This document shows, piece by piece, positions 887 to 17,155 of a stretch of 24,396 nt of DNA. The stretch's first letter is position 1; every line of letters starts with the position of its first letter. Source of the DNA: an uncultured Methanosarcinales archaeon (GTDB lineage: Archaea > Nanobdellota > Nanobdellia > Woesearchaeales > ARS49); assembly GCA_964472615.1 (NCBI GenBank), contig CAYYLN010000002.1, positions 1 through 24,396 on the forward strand, written 5' to 3'. The notes beneath the pieces were generated by a model. The model was not told the origin of the DNA, searched no databases, and was given only the letters and a program-made list of their open reading frames with translations. Made by a program: the position numbers and the translations under genes.

Positions 887-1664
887 TTAAACTTTTACTT
901 GCTTCCACGCGCAGAACGCACACGTTTCAAGTGCCTTCGGTGGGTCCTTCCTATCCAGCACGAGCTTTGCTTCTTTCAGCAAGGTCATGGCACGCGCAGG
1001 ATTTGTCTTGAGCTCGATAACGGTCGTGTCAAACGGAATGCCTTTATGCAGTTCTCCTGGCTGCGGATAATAATAGACCAGGAACGCGCGCTTGTCTGTC
1101 GGGAAGTTATTCTTCTCAAGCAAGAACTTGTAAATATCCATCTGCACTTTATAGCTCTCATGTGTTTCTTTTGGCGCGCTTGCTCGCGTCTTATGGTCGA
1201 GCGGTGCGAACACGCCTTTCTTCAACTCAAGACAATCATCAAGCAATCCCCTGAGCAGCAATCCAGTCCCCGCATCTTCATATGTCGGAAACCCCTTGCG
1301 CGGAAACCACTGGCTTCAGCCTGTTGGAGGAAGCGCGGGGTTTCCGAACATGCTCAAGAACCACTTGCCATTTGGCAGCACATTGCTTATTATTCACGCC
1401 ACTTGCTTTAGCAAGTGGTTCTTGACACTTGAGCGTCTTTGGCCGAGGAAACGCCAGCTTTCCTGGCACCTTTCCCTTCCACAACGATGGCATCTCCCCT
1501 TTCTCGCGAAACGCATCACAATATTTCTTCAGCACCGAATCAAGCTCAATCGCAATACTCGCCATCGGCCCCGCAGGCCTGCCGATACCTTTCACCATCT
1601 TCATCCAGAAACAGCGAGGGCGTGCACGGGGGAGATGGGGGGTGGAGGGGGTTACGTGGGTCGT
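887..1664 (-). pseudogene. PD-(D/E)XK (RecB/Cas4-like) nuclease, ~210 aa, interrupted by a 145-bp insertion
   Basis: N-half (PRCFWMKMVKGIGRP...PRPKTLK, 1664-1428) and C-half (YEDAGTGLLLRGLLDDCLE...LDHKT...QMDIY...CAFC, 1282-887) join in frame when 1282..1426 is removed. D...DxK, QxxxY and terminal CxxC match this family. The start codon is unclear (ACG at 1664 where ATG is expected). Confidence 0.8.
1282..1426 (+). mobile_element. 145-bp non-autonomous IS200/IS605-type hairpin element (MITE/PATE-like), copy 1
   Basis: 143/145 identical to 8934..9078. Preceded by TTCAT (1277-1281), ends TTGAC, no target duplication. Subterminal hairpins GGC-TTCA-GCC and CCACTTGC-TTTA-GCAAGTGG. The boundary is ambiguous by 1 nt (1283..1427 gives the same empty site). 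Confidence 0.8.
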
Positions 1665-2283
1665 TTTTTCCGTCTGCGGCGATGGGTGCGTGCAGCTCCG
1701 TATAAATGCTCTGATTGTGCGGTATTTGCCGGTGAAATATCTTTTGTAATTCGTGATACCCCATCTTTTCGTCACACATTCCGCGTCGTGCACACAACCG
1801 TCTCGTATACGCATCGACGACAAAAATCGGTTTGCGTCCTGCATATAAGAGCATTGAATCTGCTGTCTCGGGGCCGATGCCTTTCAGCGACAACAATTCC
1901 TCACGCAGCGGTTCAAGTTTTTTCTTGAACATCGTCGAGAAATTGTTGTGCTGTTTCAAAACGTGTTGTGCGAAAAGCTGCAGGCGTTCAGCTTTCTGAC
2001 GAAAATATCCTGATGAACGGATGAGTTGTTCGAGATTTTCTCGACGGAGATTCTCGAGTCTTCGTAATGACATCGTGTCAGCCGCAAACAACGTGTCAAG
2101 CGCTTTCTCGACGTTCTTCCATGACGTATTCTGCGTCAGGATTGCTCCCACACAAATCTCTAATTGATCCGCCTCAGTGAGTTTTCTCGTCTTGTTCGAC
2201 GGATGATACCCCTGGCTTCTCGTCGGCCACCAGCCTTGCGGGCCGTGCTTTGCGAGCAATTCATCGTAGAGCTTCTTGAGCAT
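1546..2283 (-). CDS. Endonuclease III-related HhH-GPD DNA glycosylase (no Fe-S cluster); true 3' end probably near 1660
   Basis: HGPQGWWP, ICVGAILTQNTSWKNVEKA, SSGYFRQKAERL, HhH LLSLKGIGPETADSMLLYA, VVDAY. ATG at 2283 lies ~26 nt from a TATA box. The C-terminal tail after ELHA looks corrupted and runs into the next gene. Confidence 0.88.
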   Translation of the reverse strand: MLKKLYDELLAKHGPQGWWPTRSQGYHPSNKTRKLTEADQLEICVGAILTQNTSWKNVEKALDTLFAADTMSLRRLENLRRENLEQLIRSSGYFRQKAERLQLFAQHVLKQHNNFSTMFKKKLEPLREELLSLKGIGPETADSMLLYAGRKPIFVVDAYTRRLCARRGMCDEKMGYHELQKIFHRQIPHNQSIYTELHAPIAADGKNDPRNPLHPPSPPCTPSLFLDEDGERYRQACGADGEYCD

Positions 2284-2305
2284 GATAGAGAAATATGTCC
2301 GAAGA

Positions 2306-2313
2306 CTTATAAG
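2306..2313. promoter_or_regulatory. Palindromic TATA box CTTATAAG shared by divergent genes
   Basis: Centre (2309.5) is 26.5 nt from both the minus-strand ATG at 2283 and the in-frame plus-strand GTG at 2336. Confidence 0.6.
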
Positions 2314-2335
2314 GATTTGCGTGTTCGGCAGCGTC

Positions 2336-5300
2336 GTGGGGGACGCAATCATCAGCGAAGTTCTGATCAAGAATAACCGGGCACTCATCACGCTCAAGGA
2401 CATCGGCAGCGTGTATTTCAAACATAGCCATCAGTTCCCATCAAAGATCCTCAAGCCGCCGATCAAGAAAGAAATCCTTGACGAATTCTTGAGCTACAAA
2501 CTCGAGCACTTCAACCGCATCCCGCAATTCAACATCATCCAGCTCACTGAGCAGGTTGATTTCCCTGAGCGATTAAAAGAAGATCCCGCCTTGTACAAGA
2601 CATTCAAGAAACGTTTTGTGACCGGGCATTACACGCCGCAATTGCGCTGGCGTTCTGGCGTCCCCTGGCGGCATGCAGACATCAAACAACCGCTCCTTGA
2701 ACTCCTGCGAGAAAAAAAGCAGCGCGAACACATCCTGCAGGAAACGGTCACATATGCGATACAAACCCTGCAGCAGTCTTCGCAGGCAAAGAAACGCAGG
2801 ATCACGCGGCACGAGGAATACATCGCAGAACACTGGAACACGCTCACCATGCTGGATGATCAAGGGCTTATGGAAAAGCAGCAGGCAGTGGAGCACGAAC
2901 GTTTCGCGCTCGAACAACGCGTCAAAGCCCTGCTTGGAGAAGGAACCGTCGAGGTCAATCCTGTCGACAAAAGCTTTGACATCGTGCTCGACAACATCCG
3001 CACCTACATCCACCCCAAACAATCCCTGACCGCAGACGAGATCTTCACCGGCAGACTGTACATCATGGACATCGAGAAGCCGTTGTTCGACACGCCTGAA
3101 GACGAGGTTTCGTGGATTGCGGCAATCCTCGTCGACAAAGGAAAAGTTCTGAAAAAGACCATCAAGACCCTGCGCGACCCAGGCATCGGCATGCTCCGCG
3201 ACTGGACCATCGAGCGCTACGCGACTGAACGCGACCTGGTGAAATCAGTCGAGCATGACATTATCTCCCCTGACCATGGAAGGACCGTCGATGCGGTCAT
3301 CGCGTACAACGCGCCGTATGACCTTGAGAACACTGAGGCAGCGGTCGACAGCGACTGGAAAGTTGGAGAACGGGCAGAAGACCCGAAAGTCGAAGTCGGC
3401 ATTGATTTCTTCAGGAAAATCAGGATTCCCGGCAGATTGGTCCTTGATCCCTTGCGTTGGGCGAGAATACGCTACAAGGACTTGCCCAACAGGAAACTCG
3501 AGCTCATCCTCGCAGAAGCCCATGGCATCGAACACGCCAAGGCATTGAATTACGACCAGCTCGCAGAACTCGAACGCGTCGCCAAGACCTGCGATGTCAA
3601 GCATCTCCATCCCGATGCCGCACAGATCCTCGCATCATGGTCTGGGCATCCCCTTGACGACCTCAGCCGCATCCCGCGCCTTGACCAATTGTGCGCACGG
3701 CTCGAGGCCCAGTATGTGAGCACTGACGTCGATGAACTCTTCCGCATGGTCTTCAGCCAGTGGGCACGGGACCACGTCGAGGATGCAGTCTGGCTGAGCG
3801 ACGCATACGGCGTCGAACTCTCACGGCTCCTGCACTCGGTTAACACGATCAATGACACGCAGGAACGCAACTACTGGACTTTTGTCGGCACGTATCGCGA
3901 CATCATCTACCAGAAGACCACGACGATGAAGCGACTGCAGCAAAAAGCACGTACGCATCTTGCAGAACGCATTAAAGCAAAACTGTTGCCCGAAGGCACG
4001 CGGTACGCAGGCCACCACGGTGATGTCGCAAAAGTCTACCTGCCCATCGGCCTCTGGCTTGCAAATCTCATCACCGGACATAACCCAGAGACCCAACAGA
4101 CGCGCTTCCCTGAAGTGCTCAAACTCAAGGACTATGCCCTCCAGCACCGCGCTGACAAGCGCAGGTTCTTCACGCTCTGCCAATACCTTGACGCGTTCGC
4201 AAGCTACATCCTTGTCGACTTTGGCCTGTACAATCTCGCAGTTACCGACTACCATGACATGCTCGAACGCCACCAGGTCGATCGCAAGGCATTCGAGCGC
4301 TACTCGCACGGCAGGCCCACGCATCCCGAGCTCGTGCAGAAGCTCGCTGAGCACAAGATCCCTGAGCAGGAATTCTGCGAATTCCGGATGCAGTACCGCA
4401 GCCTGCTCCAAGAAGAATCAGAATGGGCAATCAAGCATTTTGACCGCGGCACGTTCACCACCAAAGGCATCGCGAAGCATCCTGATATCGCCGCAGAATT
4501 CTGCGTCCAGCACCAGCTCCCCATCACCACGCTCGAAGAGCTGCTCAGGATTGCGGGCAAGGAATTCAAAGGCGAGCAGGACATCGATCCCTCATTGATG
4601 AAGCTCTCCGAGAACCACTGGCAGCAGCTCGTCGACGTGTACGAGAAAGTCCGCAAGCGCAAGCGCAAGATCTTCGGCCAGTACAATGTCGACGCTGACG
4701 AGATCAAGATGACGCTCAACCAGTGTCTTGCTGACTTCCAGGCATTCTGCAATAGGAATGGCTATTGGATCCTGCACGCGCAAGGGGGATTTGTTTATCT
4801 TGTCCACGGCGACCGCGGCGTGCTCAAGGCGCCTGACACCCCCGTGATCCTCGTGGATGAGATCGACCGAGCATATCTCTGTCCGAACTCCGCAGACACC
4901 AAGAACCATCCTGCATGGCAGCCGAGAGAGCACAAGATCTACTACCGCAAGCACAACTACTACGAAGGCCTCAAGGTCACCAACAGGCCCACGCACAATC
5001 TCGCCCTATTCGAGATGGAATGGTATCAGAAGATCATTGACCGCATTCTCGATCGCGATTATGAGGCAGCACTCTTCCACGCCAACGAATGCCTGGACAT
5101 CCTCAGGGGAATCCTTGATGAGAAACAGGCGGACATCGCGTACTGGGAACGACAAGCATTGCCGCCGCAGGCAGCCATCGACACCACTACCTATGATGCC
5201 CATCTCACGATCCCCAAACGCGACTTCCTCTGGCTCTCGAAGCGCAGGAACATGTATCGCGCGTACGAGCACGGCGAGCTCGTGCATTTCCTGACTGAGG

Positions 5301-5572
5301 AAGCCCATGCCCATGGCGCAAAACTCCAGACTGACGAGCGCACTGGCAGGAAATACTTTGAGGAGCCACTGCGCAAGGACAGCGAAAACGTGCGGCGCGT
5401 CCATATCATGCCTGTTGAGCAATTCCAGCCTGACGTCAGCATGTACTACGATCGCATCAAGGAACGCGTCAAGGACCTCATCGAGCCCTTGTGCGGCGAG
5501 AAAAGCAAGGCATTTGTGCAGCGATCGCAGGATGACGTCACTGCATTCTTGAGAACAGACCCGTTCGTGTGA
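2336..5572 (+). CDS. Highly diverged family B DNA polymerase-like protein (~1078 aa): DEDDy 3'-5' exonuclease motifs intact, polymerase catalytic motifs not recognisable
   Basis: ExoI MDIEK (3065-3079), ExoII YNAPYD (3305-3322), GRLVLDPLRWAR...LPNRKLE, ExoIII YVSTD (3713-3727). GYWILHAQGGFVYL (~4760-4800) sits where YxDTDS is expected. C-terminal PDVSMYYDRIKERVKDLIEPL resembles the PolB thumb end. Start GTG 2336 inferred from TATA spacing; alternative ATG 2282. Confidence 0.6.
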   Translation: MGDAIISEVLIKNNRALITLKDIGSVYFKHSHQFPSKILKPPIKKEILDEFLSYKLEHFNRIPQFNIIQLTEQVDFPERLKEDPALYKTFKKRFVTGHYTPQLRWRSGVPWRHADIKQPLLELLREKKQREHILQETVTYAIQTLQQSSQAKKRRITRHEEYIAEHWNTLTMLDDQGLMEKQQAVEHERFALEQRVKALLGEGTVEVNPVDKSFDIVLDNIRTYIHPKQSLTADEIFTGRLYIMDIEKPLFDTPEDEVSWIAAILVDKGKVLKKTIKTLRDPGIGMLRDWTIERYATERDLVKSVEHDIISPDHGRTVDAVIAYNAPYDLENTEAAVDSDWKVGERAEDPKVEVGIDFFRKIRIPGRLVLDPLRWARIRYKDLPNRKLELILAEAHGIEHAKALNYDQLAELERVAKTCDVKHLHPDAAQILASWSGHPLDDLSRIPRLDQLCARLEAQYVSTDVDELFRMVFSQWARDHVEDAVWLSDAYGVELSRLLHSVNTINDTQERNYWTFVGTYRDIIYQKTTTMKRLQQKARTHLAERIKAKLLPEGTRYAGHHGDVAKVYLPIGLWLANLITGHNPETQQTRFPEVLKLKDYALQHRADKRRFFTLCQYLDAFASYILVDFGLYNLAVTDYHDMLERHQVDRKAFERYSHGRPTHPELVQKLAEHKIPEQEFCEFRMQYRSLLQEESEWAIKHFDRGTFTTKGIAKHPDIAAEFCVQHQLPITTLEELLRIAGKEFKGEQDIDPSLMKLSENHWQQLVDVYEKVRKRKRKIFGQYNVDADEIKMTLNQCLADFQAFCNRNGYWILHAQGGFVYLVHGDRGVLKAPDTPVILVDEIDRAYLCPNSADTKNHPAWQPREHKIYYRKHNYYEGLKVTNRPTHNLALFEMEWYQKIIDRILDRDYEAALFHANECLDILRGILDEKQADIAYWERQALPPQAAIDTTTYDAHLTIPKRDFLWLSKRRNMYRAYEHGELVHFLTEEAHAHGAKLQTDERTGRKYFEEPLRKDSENVRRVHIMPVEQFQPDVSMYYDRIKERVKDLIEPLCGEKSKAFVQRSQDDVTAFLRTDPFV

Positions 5573-6657: not shown

Positions 6658-7995
6658 ATGCGCACGGCGATGTTCCTCACACTGATCCTGCTCCTCAGCA
6701 CAACTGCGTCTGCCTTCTCGACGACGAGCATCGTGCAGGGCACTGAGCCGGTCGTGTACGGCGACATTGTCGCATTCCTCACGCTTGAGGACTTTATCGA
6801 TCAAGACTTGAACAGCGACGGCGACCAGGCAGACCGCGTCCTCCAGTATTATGACACCCGCACTGAGAAAGTCACGAACACCGGCAAAGAAGCACGGCAG
6901 CCAGCCCTCTTCGGCAAGATTCTTGCCTTTACCGATGACACGCGCATCCTCCGGCTTTACACTATTGACGACAACAAAGTCATCGAGACAAACGTGCGGG
7001 GCGCATCGCCCTCGCTGTATGCGAAAACCGTCGCGCTCACGACTGCTGAAGAGGACATCGGCATCGACCTCACTGGCGATGAAGACACGCGTGACACCGT
7101 GATCCGGCAGTATGACACGGGCAGTGAGGTCGCTACCAACACCAACGCCGTCGGCGAAAACCCGGTCTTACTCGACGATTTCCTCATCTTCACGACACGC
7201 GAGGACGCCCTCGAGGCAGACCTCAACAATGACGGCGACCGTGACGACACCATCATCCGCGCCATGGATATCGACACCAACCAGATCGTGAACACCCGCG
7301 TCACCGGCACGAATCCTGTCGGCTACAAACACGAGACCATCATCATCACCGACGACAAGAAGTTCTGGACCCTCAACATCCCGAACAGCGAGAAACAACC
7401 GACCGGTGTCTCCGGCAATGATCCGTCGCTCTATCAGGACATGCTCGTCTACGAACGCGATGGCACGCTGATGCTCTATCGTCTCAGCACCGGCGTCGAG
7501 AAATCCCTCGGCATCATGGGCAAGTATCCTGCGCTCTTCGACCATCCCCTTGGCTTTGTGGCCCACAACAAGACCATCGCGGTCCCCAAAGGAGAGGATC
7601 CGGACAATGACTATGTTCCTGATTTCGCAGACAACTGCCCAGACCAGGCGAACGAAAACCAAGCAGATGCAGACAAGGACGGCCTTGGCGACGTATGTGA
7701 TGACACGCCTCTTCCTGAAGAAAAGAAGCCCGAACCTGTCGCTCCACAGGCGACTGCACACGTCACCGAGCCGCCCATCGAGCCCGTGTTCACGACGCAA
7801 GCCGAGCCAGAAACACCTCCTGCGCCAGTTGAACGCAAAGCCATCCCTGACACACTCGCCTTGCAGAAAGAAAAGGACGACCGCGAGCCCACGTACTGGT
7901 TCCTCATCGCGGTCGGGCTTATGGTCATCGGCGTCCTGCTGTATTTCTTCATGCCGCGCTGGCTCCACAAACGCAGAAAAAGCTTTGGGTTTTAA
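6658..7995 (+). CDS. Cell-surface protein (445 aa): signal peptide, three DxNxDGD Ca-binding repeats, thrombospondin type-3-like repeat, Pro/Glu/Thr linker, C-terminal TM anchor
   Basis: MRTAMFLTLILLLSTTASA; DLNSDGDQADRVLQYYD / DLTGDEDTRDTVIRQYD / DLNNDGDRDDTIIRAMD; DPDNDYVPDFADNCPDQANENQADADKDGLGDVCD; WFLIAVGLMVIGVLLYFFM followed by HKRRK. Confidence 0.85.
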   Translation: MRTAMFLTLILLLSTTASAFSTTSIVQGTEPVVYGDIVAFLTLEDFIDQDLNSDGDQADRVLQYYDTRTEKVTNTGKEARQPALFGKILAFTDDTRILRLYTIDDNKVIETNVRGASPSLYAKTVALTTAEEDIGIDLTGDEDTRDTVIRQYDTGSEVATNTNAVGENPVLLDDFLIFTTREDALEADLNNDGDRDDTIIRAMDIDTNQIVNTRVTGTNPVGYKHETIIITDDKKFWTLNIPNSEKQPTGVSGNDPSLYQDMLVYERDGTLMLYRLSTGVEKSLGIMGKYPALFDHPLGFVAHNKTIAVPKGEDPDNDYVPDFADNCPDQANENQADADKDGLGDVCDDTPLPEEKKPEPVAPQATAHVTEPPIEPVFTTQAEPETPPAPVERKAIPDTLALQKEKDDREPTYWFLIAVGLMVIGVLLYFFMPRWLHKRRKSFGF

Positions 7996-8933
7996 CGGGC
8001 GCACAAATACGCATGCAGTATTCGGAGACCATCCTCGAGCGATGTGTGCGGCTTCCAGCCCAAGAGCTTCTCTGCCTTGCTCACGTCCGCATACGTCTGT
8101 GAGACATCGCCCTCTCGCCGCGGCTGGGGATTTCTGATAGCATTCTTACCCACGATTTTTTCAAGCGTCTCAATGAATACGTTGAGCTCCACCGGGCTTG
8201 AGTTACCAAGATTGATGATCTCAAACCGCAGATCAGCGTCCGTAGCAGCAAGCACTCCTTCCACGATGTCGTCGATGAACGTGTAATCCCTGCGGCTCGC
8301 GCCATCGCCGTACACCTCAATCGGTTCGCTACGCATAATGCTCCGCATGAATTTGTACGGCGCCATGTCCGGCCGGCCGCGAGGACCATACACGGTGAAG
8401 AACCGCAAGCACGTCGCAGGCAAACCGAATTTTGCATAGGTCCAACACCAGAGTTCTCCCAAGCGCTTTGTCACACCATAGGGGCTGATTTGCGTGTCCG
8501 CAGGGTCAGTCTCGCGGAATGGAACTTCAGCGCGTTCACCATAGACTGAAGAGCTCGAAGCAAAGATGAAATTCTTGACGTTCGACTTCTGGGCAAGATC
8601 AAGCAGAATGGCGGTTCCCGTGACATTCCCATCATAATAGAGCTTGGGATTCTTGAGCGAAGGACGCACTCCTGCGCGCGCAGCAAGATGGATGACTTTG
8701 TCCGGTTGTTCTTTCGTGAAGGTGCATTGCATCCCGGCTTCATGCGTAATATCCGCCTCGCAGAGATCAAACGACCTATGGCCTACTATTCCTGCAATGT
8801 TGTCACGCTTGATGCGAGGATCATAATAGTCATTGAAGTTGTCGACCCCGACAACGCAATCGCCGCGCTTCAGCAACGCCTCACAGACGTGGCTGCCGAT
8901 GAATCCCGCAGCACCAGTCACGAGGTATTTCAT
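7992..8933 (-). CDS. NAD-dependent NDP-sugar epimerase/dehydratase (UDP-glucuronate 4-epimerase/WcaG-like SDR)
   Basis: VTGAAGFIGSH, HLAARAGVRPS, ASSSSVYG, YGVTK, LRFFTVYGPRGRPDMA, RDYTFIDDIVEG. Confidence 0.93.
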   Translation of the reverse strand: MKYLVTGAAGFIGSHVCEALLKRGDCVVGVDNFNDYYDPRIKRDNIAGIVGHRSFDLCEADITHEAGMQCTFTKEQPDKVIHLAARAGVRPSLKNPKLYYDGNVTGTAILLDLAQKSNVKNFIFASSSSVYGERAEVPFRETDPADTQISPYGVTKRLGELWCWTYAKFGLPATCLRFFTVYGPRGRPDMAPYKFMRSIMRSEPIEVYGDGASRRDYTFIDDIVEGVLAATDADLRFEIINLGNSSPVELNVFIETLEKIVGKNAIRNPQPRREGDVSQTYADVSKAEKLLGWKPHTSLEDGLRILHAYLCAR

Positions 8934-9078
8934 GTGTCGGAAACCCCTTGCGCGGAAACCACTGGCTTCAGCCTGTTGGAGGAAGCGCGGGGTTTCCGAA
9001 CATGCTCAAGAACCACTTGCCATTTGGCAGCACATTGCTTATTATTCATGCCACTTGCTTTAGCAAGTGGTTCTTGAC
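8934..9078 (+). mobile_element. 145-bp non-autonomous IS200/IS605-type hairpin element, copy 2
   Basis: Differs from 1282..1426 only at the first base and at 9049 (T vs C). Preceded by TTCAT (8929-8933, includes the epimerase start codon), ends TTGAC. Confidence 0.8.
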
Positions 9079-9100: not shown

Positions 9101-9109
9101 CTTATAAAG
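9101..9109 (-). promoter_or_regulatory. Probable TATA box of the epimerase gene, displaced by the insertion
   Basis: TTTATAAG on the minus strand lies ~27 nt from ATG 8933 once the 145-bp element is removed, the same spacing as other promoters in the window. Confidence 0.55.
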
Positions 9110-9676: not shown

Positions 9677-9972
9677 ATGTCGAAAACTGCTCTTGACGTA
9701 CCCTGCGGACTTTAGTCCGCCAGAAAGGACGAGCAGTTTTCGAGCATGACTTGACCAACGCTGCTGCGTTGTCATCTCGACAAGCAAAGCTTGTCGACGT
9801 CTCGCCAATCATTAGATTGGCGATGAACTTGAATAACTTTGTTATTCAAGTAACTTGAGAAACGCGGTTTCTCAAGTTCGTCGGAAATCAGCGGATTTCC
9901 GAGACTCAACAACCACGAGCAAATTTTGATGGCGTGTAGTCACGCCACTCGCTTTAGCGAGTGGTTGTTGAC
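9677..9972 (+). mobile_element. 296-bp composite hairpin element related to the 145-bp element, with an internal array of six hairpins
   Basis: Left module TGTCGAAAAC...GCGGAC-TTTA-GTCCGC...GTTTTCGAGCATG; right module TCAACAACCAC...CCACTCGC-TTTA-GCGAGTGGTTGTTGAC. Ends covary with the 145-bp copies. ATGTC occurs at 9677 and 9973. Confidence 0.6.
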
Positions 9973-14270: not shown

Positions 14271-14355
14271 GACCACTCCATTCATGACTCCTCCCGAGTG
14301 AGCAATAAATCTTTTAATACTTCCTGTCAGCGAGTGCATAAAAGAGGTTTGTTTG

Positions 14356-16179
14356 ATGAAGAGCATTATCACCTTGTTTGTCATACTCATTCTTTCCTTG
14401 TCTTTAGTCACTGCAATCGAGATCAGCAAATCAGTCATCAGTCAAATAAAACCAGTCAGCACCAAGATTGTGCCAAAACTCATCCCACTCCAGACTTGTG
14501 CGCGTGACGGACAACGCGCAGAAGATTATGGCGGGCGTTGTTGCGAAGGACTCAGCCAAGTGCGTGGCACGTGCTATCCTGGCCCAGACTGCGCCATCAC
14601 AGGACAACGCGCAGTAGACTTTCCGGAAGGATGCTGCGAAGACCTCGTTGCCAACCCCCAAGGAACCTGTGAATGGCGTTGCGCACGCCAAGGAGAAAGC
14701 TCCTACGGCTCAATCACGTGCTGCCAAGGGCTGTATCGCGACCCCAATCACATCTGCAGATCCTGCGCACCAGAAAACCAACGAGCAGCAGACTACGGAA
14801 ACATTTGCTGTGCTGGACTTACGAATCAAGGAGGCATTTGCACCAGACAACAACGTTGTGCTGGTGCTGGTTTGAATGCGGCAGTGTATGGTGGTGGGCG
14901 ATGTTGTGAGGGCTTAGTGTTGGTGGGTGGTGTGTGTAATGTTCCTCAAGAGCCCCCTGCAGAACGTTGTGCTGGTGCTGGTTTGAATGCGGCAGTGTAT
15001 GGTGGTGGGCGATGTTGTGAGGGCTTAGTGTTGGTGGGTGGTGTGTGTAATGTTCCTCAAGAGCCCCCTGCAGAACGTTGTGCTGGTGCTGGTCTGAGCG
15101 CGGTGGTGTATGGTGACGGACGATGCTGTGAAGGCCTGGTATTAGTTGGCGGCATTTGCAATGTTCCACGTGAAGAAGAACAATGCGTAGCTGAGGGTGA
15201 AGCACGAGGGTTCTGGGACATTATATTTGGACGACAGTGCTGTTCAGGTTTAGAACTCAGAGAAGGGGTTTGTCGTCGACCAGGCGAAGAGCGTTGTGCT
15301 GGTGCTGGTCTGAGCGCGGCAGTGTATGGTGACGGACGATGCTGTGAAGGCCTGGTATTAGTTGGTGGTCTCTGTAATGTTCCTCGTGGTGAAGAGCGCT
15401 GTGCTGGTGCTGGATTACGCGCAGACCTTTCTGGCGGTCGCTGTTGTGAGGGCTTGATTTTGCAAGGCGGTTTGTGTAATGTTCCTCGTGGTGAAGAACG
15501 CTGTGCAGGACCTGGCCTTCGCGCTGATGTGTATGGTGACGGACGATGCTGCGAAGGCCTTGTGCTCGTTGGTGGTCTTTGTAATGTCCCTCGCGGCGAA
15601 ATTCCACCAGCAGAAGAAGTCCCACCTGAAGAAATTCCTCCTGCAGCATGTGATGCCTGTGGTGAAATCGGAGGCCTCAGAACAGAAATAACTGAAATCA
15701 CGAGCACCATTGCAAATCTTCAACGCCAACTCAACATTTTGCTTTCCTTGCGATGCGCAGGCCCTGGCCTCAAGCCAGACCCGTACACTGGCCGCTGCTG
15801 CCAAGGACTCATCCTCATCAAGGGCATCTGCAATGTCCCGCCTGCAAAAGCACCTGATACGCAATGCGCAGGCGAGGGCCTGCGAGCAGACATGTATGAG
15901 GGAACGTGTTGCGAAAACCTCATAGAAGTCGGAGGCATTTGCCGCAAGCCAACCAAGCCAGAATGCGCAGGACCAGGACTCAAAGCAACAGAACGAGGCA
16001 AGCGCTGCTGCCTTGGGCTTGTCCTTCGAGGAGACACGTGCGTGCTCCCGCCTTCACCTGCAGACTACTTGGGCCAATGCGCAACCGAAGGCCTCCGGGC
16101 AGACATGTACGGCGAACGCTGTTGCGGAGACCTTGTTGAAATCCAAGGCATTTGCCGTGCACTACCCCTCTTGGGGTGA
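14356..16179 (+). CDS. Secreted Cys-rich repeat protein (607 aa, 15 C-x12..17-CC-x9..10-C modules plus a CxxC/coiled-coil segment)
   Basis: Signal MKSIITLFVILILSLSLVTA; module consensus CAGxGLxAxxYGxGRCCEGLxLxGGxC. ATG 14356 preferred over TTG 14353; AGAGGT upstream. Confidence 0.85.
   Translation: MKSIITLFVILILSLSLVTAIEISKSVISQIKPVSTKIVPKLIPLQTCARDGQRAEDYGGRCCEGLSQVRGTCYPGPDCAITGQRAVDFPEGCCEDLVANPQGTCEWRCARQGESSYGSITCCQGLYRDPNHICRSCAPENQRAADYGNICCAGLTNQGGICTRQQRCAGAGLNAAVYGGGRCCEGLVLVGGVCNVPQEPPAERCAGAGLNAAVYGGGRCCEGLVLVGGVCNVPQEPPAERCAGAGLSAVVYGDGRCCEGLVLVGGICNVPREEEQCVAEGEARGFWDIIFGRQCCSGLELREGVCRRPGEERCAGAGLSAAVYGDGRCCEGLVLVGGLCNVPRGEERCAGAGLRADLSGGRCCEGLILQGGLCNVPRGEERCAGPGLRADVYGDGRCCEGLVLVGGLCNVPRGEIPPAEEVPPEEIPPAACDACGEIGGLRTEITEITSTIANLQRQLNILLSLRCAGPGLKPDPYTGRCCQGLILIKGICNVPPAKAPDTQCAGEGLRADMYEGTCCENLIEVGGICRKPTKPECAGPGLKATERGKRCCLGLVLRGDTCVLPPSPADYLGQCATEGLRADMYGERCCGDLVEIQGICRALPLLG
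14852..15093 (+). repeat. Perfect intragenic tandem repeat, 111-bp unit (37 aa), ~2.2 copies
   Basis: Unit starts AACGTTGTGCTGGTGCTGGT at 14852, 14963 and 15074; units 1 and 2 are identical by inspection. More diverged copies continue to ~15600. Confidence 0.9.
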
Positions 16180-16234: not shown

Positions 16235-16879
16235 ATGCCATTTGAAGCAAAAAACTATGACTCATTGTTGGGATTGCAAGGATTTTCTGACCAATTACTG
16301 AAGAATCACTTTACGCTCTATCAAGGCTATGTGACGAACACAAACAAGCTTGCCGATGCTCTTGCCGCGATGCTCAAAGAAGGCAAGCAGGCAACCCCTG
16401 AATTTGCAGAGCTCAAGCGACGCTTTGGCTGGGAATTCAACGGCATGCGGCTGCACGAGCTCTACTTTGGCAACCTGTCGCCGACCAGCAGGTCGGCGAG
16501 CATGCTCGGAAATCAGCAGATTTCCGACATCGCCAAGGGAGACAAGGCAATGCCTGAATCGCTGAAGAAGCAACTCGCCAAGGACTTTGGCAGCGTCGAA
16601 AACTGGGAAAAGGATATGAAAGCCATCTGCGCCATGCGCGGCATCGGTTGGGCAGTCCTGTATTACGACATCGGTAACAAGCGTCTCATCAATGTCTGGA
16701 TCAATGAGCACGATGTCGGCCACCTGACCACATGCGCGCCCATCCTGGTCATCGACGTCTTCGAACACGCGTTCATGATCGACTACGGCATCAAGCGCGC
16801 GGAGTACATCGAGGCACTGTGGAAAGTCCTCAATTGGGAAGAAGCAGAACGACGGCTGAAGCTCGTCGGGTTCAAGTAA
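16235..16879 (+). CDS. sod: Fe/Mn superoxide dismutase (214 aa)
   Basis: Metal ligands in NHFTLYQGYV, EFNGMRLHELYF and DVFEHAFMIDYG. Confidence 0.93.
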   Translation: MPFEAKNYDSLLGLQGFSDQLLKNHFTLYQGYVTNTNKLADALAAMLKEGKQATPEFAELKRRFGWEFNGMRLHELYFGNLSPTSRSASMLGNQQISDIAKGDKAMPESLKKQLAKDFGSVENWEKDMKAICAMRGIGWAVLYYDIGNKRLINVWINEHDVGHLTTCAPILVIDVFEHAFMIDYGIKRAEYIEALWKVLNWEEAERRLKLVGFK

Positions 16880-16936: not shown

Positions 16937-17155
16937 ATGGCGACAACCATTCAAATCAGCGAAGAACTGCGCAAACAACTCCAAGAGCGCAAGCTCTATG
17001 AGAAAGAAAGCTATGAAGAGGTCATTCGCGACCTTATTGAGGATACTCTTGAACTGAACGAGCAAACGAAGAAGGAAATGGCGCAATCTCGTGCAGAGAT
17101 CAAAGCCGGAAAATTCCTCACACTTGAACAAGTCAAAAAGAAATACGGGCTATAA
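16937..17155 (+). CDS. Putative antitoxin (RelB-like, N-terminal ribbon-helix-helix, 72 aa)
   Basis: MATTIQISEELRKQL...ESYEEVIRDLIED...GKFLTLEQVKKKYGL. Abuts a RelE-like toxin. TTTATATA 16906-16913 at leaderless spacing. Confidence 0.8.
   Translation: MATTIQISEELRKQLQERKLYEKESYEEVIRDLIEDTLELNEQTKKEMAQSRAEIKAGKFLTLEQVKKKYGL

Follow-up and report, generated by a model that had tools for sequence, protein, structure and literature searches.

Two copies of a non-coding element of 145 nt, one of which splits a nuclease gene, lie in a 24,396-nt stretch of DNA from an uncultured archaeon (GenBank assembly GCA_964472615.1, contig CAYYLN010000002.1; the whole stretch is called the window here). Copy A occupies positions 1282–1426 and copy B positions 8934–9078, and they are identical at 143 of the 145 positions. 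We consider it likely that the element is a non-autonomous member of the IS200/IS605 family, a palindrome-associated transposable element (PATE), moved in trans by the transposase TnpA. The copies are inserted 3′ of a conserved 4–5 nt motif that remains in the left flank. Hairpins of the same strand are found near both ends, the left one farther from its end than the right one. The element can be removed in silico seamlessly and without target duplication, as seen directly at copy A and from the promoter-to-ATG spacing restored at five further sites. Finally, a guide tetranucleotide is complementary to the cleavage motif by the code known from IS608. IS200/IS605-type anatomy and target rules had been proposed in an earlier reading of this DNA (the original prediction), and the lack of duplication, the TTCAT at the left end, the subterminal hairpins and the seamless excision all agree with that proposal. 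The complementarity of guide and cleavage site had not been noticed then and was found in the present analysis. The guide/cleavage-site code of the IS200/IS605 family, worked out on a few bacterial elements, is in this way extended by sequence alone to an uncultured archaeal lineage, and the family provides a clean natural set of guide/target variants that is directly testable.

The extent of the element follows from comparing the two copies. A repeat search paired them at 97% identity across 158 nt, and a probe consisting of the first 68 nt of copy A matched copy B with 1 mismatch, where 0 matches are expected from shuffled sequences. In the alignment there are 2 differences within the 145 nt, and outside the copies the DNA is unrelated, except for TTCAT at the left and AC at the right. 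Both copies lie directly 3′ of TTCAT, the transposon-adjacent target motif (TAM), and carry TTGAC, the transposon-encoded terminal motif (TEM), at their right terminus, just as had been predicted. Bases 1282 and 1427 are both A, which allows the boundary to shift by one base, to the equivalent coordinates 1283–1427, and any target duplication at copy A is at most 1 nt. The predicted absence of a target duplication is upheld to that degree by orthologues of the split gene and by the DNA of L001, the contig that carries the closest of them. A model with a 1-nt duplication (A on either side) agrees with most copies and with the one in L004 (G/G), but not with copy B (G/A).

Deletion of copy A restores a reading frame. 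On the minus strand, loss of 1282–1426 joins CTC AAG T to AT GAA GAT and yields one open frame (...PRPKTLKYEDAGTGLLLRGLLDD...), which reads ...PRPKTLK/YEDAGTGLLLRGLLDD... in frame across the junction (slash). The restored protein matches the Pfam family PF12705 (PDDEXK_1; E=4.5e-7, over the curated cut-off) over residues 56–188, junction included. The conserved D...(D/E)xK...QxxxY motifs of such nucleases are present, D74, D88-H89-K90 and Q106...Y110 being invariant in the alignment. There are 32 homologues, 14 of which cross the junction without a gap. The closest one (P0001, 85% identical) is uninterrupted and reads KTLKWEDSST at the junction. Its contig is syntenic, with the same HhH-GPD gene upstream, and in the DNA alignment the 145 nt are simply absent. 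The claim of a seamless, in-frame excision from the nuclease gene is borne out by the restored frame and by its gapless alignment with the 14 orthologues. The original prediction had also held that the element brings in an in-frame stop. The frame is indeed broken, but the stop is a TGA that arises at the junction (GAC ATA TGA) and does not lie inside the element.

A degenerate right-end pattern was used to find further copies in public metagenome-assembled genomes (MAGs) and metagenome contigs. Three were found in MAGs titled 'uncultured Methanosarcinales archaeon' and 11 in metagenome contigs. Copies with both ends number 16, the window included, and each is at a different site; they are 109–296 nt long, and 7 of them are of 145 nt. 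The left end of the family is (A/G)TGTCGGAAA, with ATGTCGAAAAC as a second type, and the right end is GCRAGTGGTTSTTGAC. The flanks are largely as had been expected: TTCAT is the commonest on the left (9 of the 16 copies), followed by TGCAT, GTTAT, TTTGT, TTGAC, TTAAC and TTTAC, which broadly resemble a T-T-N-A-Y pattern, and by two outliers, ATCAG and TCTAG. The base following TTGAC is A in 15/16 copies. The window copies are 95–97% identical to those in L008 and L010, which are at unrelated loci, whereas orthologous genes in L001 are only 73–80% identical. With near-identical copies at unrelated sites, recent mobility of the element is plausible. That much of the earlier claim of an active element mobilized in trans holds; activity at the present day is inferred. 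Scans of viral contigs with right-end, left-end and linker patterns yielded either no match or chance ones, unconfirmed by a profile search.

The copies share an elaborate predicted fold. As single-stranded DNA, copy A would fold with −40.4 kcal/mol (z=−8.1). The consensus fold of 11 copies has two domains, in each of which an inner hairpin, with TTCA or TTTA as its loop, is surrounded by a long outer stem. Of the cells in the fold 98% are paired, 9 pairs have changes on both sides, and no column shuffle was as good. Compensatory changes are found in the helix of the left outer stem (5 pairs), in the right outer stem (G:C to C:G in 4 copies) and in both inner hairpins, the right subterminal one having T:A to C:G in 5 copies. 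The inner left hairpin resembles, by direct reading, the right hairpin at 1399–1418. Because the hairpins are palindromic, covariation is silent on the strand, or the nucleic acid, that matters. Wobble pairs lean weakly to the + strand (13 vs. 2 on the + strand fold; 7 vs. 5 when the strands were folded separately).

In IS608, it is not the protein that reads the cleavage motifs; these pair with the four bases 5′ of each hairpin foot (PMC3201880, PMC5934647). The left cleavage site (CL) TTAC pairs with the left guide (GL) AAAG, and the right site (CR) TCAA with the right guide (GR) GAAT, such that motif position 1 meets guide base 2, position 2 meets guide base 1 and position 4 meets guide base 4; the reported pairs are C-3:G-35, T-4:A-34 and T-4:A+17, and the third motif base is unpaired (PMC3201880, PMC5934647). 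This register was shifted by one base to suit the 5-nt motif of the present element. The left guide GAAA is then predicted to pair with TTCAT through C3:G, T2:A and T5:A, and the right guide CACG with the terminal TTGAC through G3:C, T2:A and C5:G. Over the 12 copies scored, Watson–Crick pairs account for 34/36 guide/motif positions at the left and 35/36 at the right. Variant left guides are accompanied by matching flanks: AAAA by GTTAT or TTTGT (L006, L009) and CAAG by TTGAC (L016). When flanks were shuffled among copies, the observed score was reached in 0.16% of the trials (permutation p=0.0016). Three other copies (L011, L003 and the composite at 9677) were judged by eye, and the first of these, which has the second type of left end, combines TACG with TTAAC in accord with the code. 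TAM and TEM differ at positions 3 and 5. The same positions differ in ISGst2 (TAM TTTAT, TEM TTCAC), and the TAM of ISGst5 is TTCAT itself (PMC10055086). The features on which these comparisons rest are collected in Table 1.

Table 1. Coordinates of the element, its putative recognition features and the genes next to it (a slash marks the insertion point or element end, ^ a joined junction)
Feature	Position	Strand	Remarks
Copy A, top strand	1282..1426	+	Repeat search, alignment, orthologue comparison
Copy B	8934..9078	+	143/145 vs. copy A; separates the start codon of the epimerase gene from its TATA-like box
TTCAT, TAM 5′ of the left end of copy A	1277..1281	+	
TAM of copy A read on the other strand	1277..1281	-	ATGAA within nuclease codons T/AT GAA
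TTCAT flank of copy B	8929..8933	+	Its CAT is the epimerase ATG start codon on the minus strand
TTGAC, TEM of copy A	1422..1426	+	
Element ends			Left end with flank TTCAT/ATGTCGGAAA...GAAA-CCACTGGC; right end CACG-CCACTYGCTTTAGCRAGTGGTTSTTGAC/
Expected junctions			Empty sites CCAAAGACGCTCAAGT^ATGAAGATGCGGGG and GCGCATGT^ATGAAATACCTC; circle GGTTCTTGAC^ATGTCGGAAACC
Left domain	1282..1351	+	Outer stem (1282-1301 paired to 1333-1351) around an internal loop and the inner left hairpin
Putative left guide GAAA	1303..1306	+	4 nt directly 5′ of the foot of the inner left hairpin
Inner left hairpin	1307..1326	+	CCACTGGC-TTCA-GCCTGTTGG; 25 nt from the left end
Right domain	1354..1425	+	Outer stem of TCAAGAACC (1354-1362) and GGTTCTTGA (1417-1425) around a variable region and the right hairpin
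Putative right guide CACG	1395..1398	+	4 nt directly 5′ of the foot of the right hairpin
Right subterminal hairpin	1399..1418	+	CCACTTGC-TTTA-GCAAGTGG; ends 8 nt from the right end
Nuclease, 3′ part	887..1281	-	YEDAGTG...CAFCAWKQVKV; D...DHK...QxxxY motifs and C-terminal CxxC
Nuclease, 5′ part	1427..1664	-	Orthologue homology begins near 1660 (PSTPHLPRARPRCFW); first ATG 1604-1602
NAD-dependent epimerase/dehydratase	7992..8933	-	Intact, 313 aa; Pfam match from residue 4
TATA-like CTTTATAAG	9101..9109	-	At -30/-29 from the epimerase ATG once copy B is removed in silico
Composite relative, 296 nt	9677..9972	+	Left end ATGTCGAAAAC..., six short perfect hairpins in an array, same right hairpin and TTGAC end
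Two 22-nt hairpins in the superoxide dismutase gene	16478..16534	+	TCGCCGACC.agca.GGTCGGCGA, GCATGC, TCGGAAATC.agca.GATTTCCGA, CAT

The likeness to IS608 and ISDra2 extends to the lack of target duplication, insertion 3′ of a short motif, and subterminal hairpins of the top strand that are farther from the left end than from the right (25/8 nt here, 19/10 in IS608). A 4-nt guide lies 5′ of the hairpin foot in the same register, and the penultimate A of the motif is unpaired. The differences are that neither tnpA nor tnpB is contained in the 145 nt, that the motifs are the 5-nt TTCAT/TTGAC rather than TTAC/TCAA, that each inner hairpin is enclosed in a long outer stem starting 1–3 nt from the end, and that the host is an uncultured archaeon. 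With ISGst2, ISGst5 and their PATE-like derivatives in Geobacillus stearothermophilus, the element shares the TAM TTCAT (ISGst5), TAM and TEM that differ at positions 3 and 5, covariation of guide and TAM, and the character of a protein-free mini element, which in Geobacillus has the ends of full-length ones (PMC10055086). In Geobacillus, however, tnpA, tnpB/iscB and guide RNAs are known, whereas here none of these was found and no guide-RNA family was matched. The PATEs of Haloquadratum walsbyi and other haloarchaea, which have no inverted terminal repeats to speak of, are likewise archaeal and non-coding, with near-terminal palindromes, no duplication, and collapsed 'terminal-only' versions that arose by internal deletion (PMC3119063). 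The present family differs from them in lineage and sequence; its members are shorter than most PATEs and are found more uniformly at gene starts.

By analogy with these systems, movement of the element could proceed as follows. A Y1 HUH transposase (TnpA) encoded elsewhere would bind both inner hairpins on the top (+) strand, where the four bases 5′ of each hairpin foot would serve as DNA guides for the cleavage sites: GAAA would pair with the flanking TTCAT at the left, and at the right CACG would pair with TTGAC, the element's own terminus. Once the top strand had been cut after TTCAT and after TTGAC, it would leave as a single-stranded circle, and the donor would be resealed free of scar. 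The circle would insert 3′ of another TTCAT in single-stranded DNA, again with no target duplication. Copy A would have landed on the TTCAT that the nuclease codons TAT GAA provide, breaking the gene, and copy B on the one provided by the epimerase gene with its ATG AAA start.

Several points weigh against this assignment. The pairing register was picked by analogy, after the data had been seen, and variant guides are present in only 3 of the 12 scored copies. By eye, two older-looking relatives fit the code poorly (2/3 pairs in L003 and 1/3 at window 9677). The left outer stem, unlike that of IS608, begins only 3 nt from the element end, and the termini have a weak inverted similarity (TGTCGGAAACC / GGTTCTTGACA, 9/13). 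There are also mini-hairpins, in arrays and in a superoxide dismutase gene (see below), which have neither guides nor inner hairpins and which the mechanism does not explain. Finally, the window and ~110 kb of related loci yielded no tnpA, tnpB or iscB and no full-length element bounded by these ends. A crude motif screen of 319 reading frames in ~134 kb revealed no HUH-type or TnpB-like protein, in agreement with the earlier statement that tnpA, tnpB and iscB are all missing from the window. The earlier suggestion of IscB-type ends is not supported: a permissive Rfam search of 1200–1500 gave only generic hairpin noise, the best sub-threshold hairpin match scoring 23.8 bits against a threshold of 51.5 bits, with no HEARO or other guide-RNA family. 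At the gathering threshold Rfam identified tRNA only, and no family for the element. An archaeal bulge-helix-bulge intron was considered as well and rejected by eye, the start of the supposed intron being unpaired with the 3′ exon and the same sequence being present in intergenic DNA.

The position of the copies relative to genes deserves attention. Nine copies have TTCAT or TGCAT as their flank, and in eight of them the CAT is the start codon, on the other strand, of a frame of 87–313 aa, among them the intact epimerase (copy B), a ferredoxin and a thioredoxin-like protein. Leaderless transcription seems to be the rule in the lineage, because TATA-like hexamers cluster at −31 to −28 from the ATG in 127 predicted genes of the window and of L001–L016. 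The spacing restored at the epimerase gene by removal of copy B is the canonical leaderless spacing in these genomes. When [A/G]TGTC...TTGAC is removed in silico, a TATA-like hexamer comes to lie at −32 to −27 in L004, L005, L013, L014 and copy B, and in L008 ATTTAT comes to lie at −31 (by eye). This shows the element of the promoter-spaced copies exactly between the predicted promoter and the start codon, and the restored spacing provides independent support for the element boundaries. No empty site for copy B was found among epimerase homologues, the best of which is only 61% identical.

The target is the reverse complement of (T)ATGAA, which would place most copies exactly between the ATG and a leaderless promoter. 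Non-genic TATGAA sites of the same sequences coincide with gene starts in 20/32 cases (62%), and start-codon placement in 8/8 cases has a probability of ~0.02 if intragenic insertions are assumed to have been purged. A special mechanism for start codons, such as the use of single-stranded DNA in open promoter complexes, was set aside as unneeded, since a target of 6 nt and selection against hits within genes suffice. A target of 5 nt mirroring ATGAA would funnel insertions to the junction of leaderless promoter and start codon, which is where an insertion is likeliest to alter expression without destroying the protein. Transcripts from the displaced promoters would have their start at the element's right end, with a folded leader of 145 nt. 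A more ambitious proposal is that the element systematically lands at +1 of leaderless genes, since TTCAT and the A after it, read on the other strand, give the leaderless initiator together with the start (T-ATG-AA). It would thereby add a strongly folded leader of 145 nt that TnpA can remove without scar and be a genome-wide reversible modulator of expression, with in-frame hairpin remnants, as in superoxide dismutase, as its footprints. We regard this proposal as rather unlikely.

The copies could instead be repeats akin to repetitive extragenic palindromes (REPs) and REPINs, served by a single-copy domesticated Y1 transposase (RAYT) and spread or maintained as extragenic palindromes. Hairpins that are short and perfect, of the form TCG-N6-loop-N6'-CGA with (G)CATG(C) as flanks, are indeed clustered in intergenic DNA (window 9777–9902; L011 1943–2049 and 2455–2520), and these arrays would be the counterpart of bacterial interspersed mosaic elements (BIMEs). 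The long left domain has the build of two inverted repeat units, the motif screen turned up no IS-type partner, and RAYTs are related to TnpA, so the guide code is compatible with them also. REPs, however, are defined by a conserved GTAG or GGAG 5′ of the palindrome and usually have no fixed flanking target. In the present element there is no GTAG, the conserved context being (G)CATG(C), and a clear 5-nt flank motif is matched by a terminal one, which is also how true IS200/IS605 elements are built. The present data reveal no RAYT gene for the lineage either, and a REP-like origin appears unlikely to us.

The termini, which read TGTC...GACA, could also be taken as those of a small mobile repeat (SMR), like the ones of Haloquadratum, or of a miniature inverted-repeat transposable element (MITE); it would have TG...CA ends and be moved by another transposase through cuts inside CATG. 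With the boundaries 1283–1427, a circle junction would, on direct reading, recreate the CATG linker between the two domains, and SMRs with inverted ends and no duplication do exist, their mobilization being unexplained (PMC3119063). But the inverted similarity of the termini is weak, 9 of 13 bases being shared (TGTCGGAAACCCC vs. TGTCAAGAACCAC), and it may merely reflect the two similar hairpins. DDE-type elements nearly always duplicate their target, and nothing above 1 nt is seen here; a MITE of a DDE transposon was rejected on this ground, both at copy A and at the promoter-spaced sites. Nor does such an origin predict the covariation of flank and guide, and it is quite improbable.

Since 8 of the 16 copies are directly next to a start codon and the fold is conserved and of great stability, the sequence could be a structured RNA, a regulatory 5′ leader or a small RNA gene, whose position is functional and which spread by recombination and not by transposition. 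Against this, the start-codon position follows from the target motif, the wobble counts point weakly to the + strand, the antisense one for the neighboring genes, no Rfam family is matched, and one copy is within a coding sequence that it destroys. We hold this explanation to be very improbable. That one of the window copies is an assembly artefact is hardly credible: although the contig is from a metagenome assembly, where 145-nt repeats are near read length, the copies differ at 2 positions and have unrelated flanks, each biologically sensible, and the same boundaries are found in 14 other copies from independent assemblies.

We return to the nuclease gene, for which copy A had been proposed to act as a reversible off/on switch. 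Comparison with L001 and the orthologues does not favor this role, as the gene is defective in other respects too. In L001 a TATA-like box is present 30 nt upstream of the ATG, and the N-terminus reads MPKPLSPSTLNLLRDCPRCFW; the window has no counterpart of either box or ATG, and the 5′ part of its gene (1427–1664) contains no promoter-like TATA and no orthologous start codon in this comparison. About 50 nt of L001 (1100–1200) are missing from the window (1546–1700, minus strand), between the HhH-GPD and nuclease genes. Their loss removes the stop codon of the HhH-GPD gene, the frame of which extends ~50 codons more, to 1546, and takes away the TATA-like box and start codon of the nuclease gene as well. 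The N-terminal CxxC is reduced to RPRC (STPHLPRARPRCFW), the first cysteine, kept in every full-length orthologue, being gone. The remainder of the nuclease is 85% identical to P0001, with no further stop, and the decay looks recent. Precise excision is the normal first step of IS200/IS605-type transposition. As it opens the pathway, reversion of copy A is possible in principle. It would not restore a normal nuclease gene, because the promoter, start codon and conserved cysteine have also been lost. The gene is therefore most likely a recent pseudogene rather than a switched-off gene, and the element is best regarded as one of several hits on a gene that is dying, although its insertion could have been the first. 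In annotation, the nuclease gene is to be marked as probably a pseudogene, and the hairpin family as giving rise to split genes and unusual in-frame insertions in these genomes.

In L016 (~5369–5390, minus strand), the flank to the left of the element, TTCACGC-TTGAC, resembles the right end of another element with the hairpin deleted, and the insertion of this copy may have taken place behind the TEM of an older one. In L007 (830–944, minus strand), a diverged relative retains the two outer stems and lacks the inner right hairpin; its place is between a TATA-like box and the start of a gene, in an orientation opposite to that of other start-adjacent copies.

The 296-nt composite in the window starts directly after the stop codon of the L37e gene. 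The stem sequences vary between arrayed hairpins, one module (TCGCCAATC...GATTGGCGATGAACTTGA) being common to the window and L011, and a further hairpin of this form is found at 16978–16998 of L002. The superoxide dismutase gene of the window (16235–16879, +) contains two perfect hairpins of the element family in frame, which add ~19 loop residues (SPTSRSASMLGNQQISDIA) that are absent from 11 homologues and from the best-matching solved structures. Rickettsia palindromic elements are short palindromic repeats that are similarly read in frame as extra residues of surface loops. The likeness is restricted to the superoxide dismutase insertion, the sequences and hosts being unrelated.

As regards the host, the best named homologues of the epimerase are 52–59% identical and are mostly from Nanoarchaeota and Woesearchaeota, whereas the element-bearing MAGs (L003–L005) are labeled Methanosarcinales; that label is doubtful for the lineage. 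Elsewhere in the window, a frame of 1098 aa (2276–5572, +) has no Pfam match at E≤0.01. Another, of 608 aa (14353–16179, +), with a weak match to DUF7259 only, consists of tandem and dispersed repeats of 102–111 nt with recurring Cys-rich units, two of which are 100% identical.

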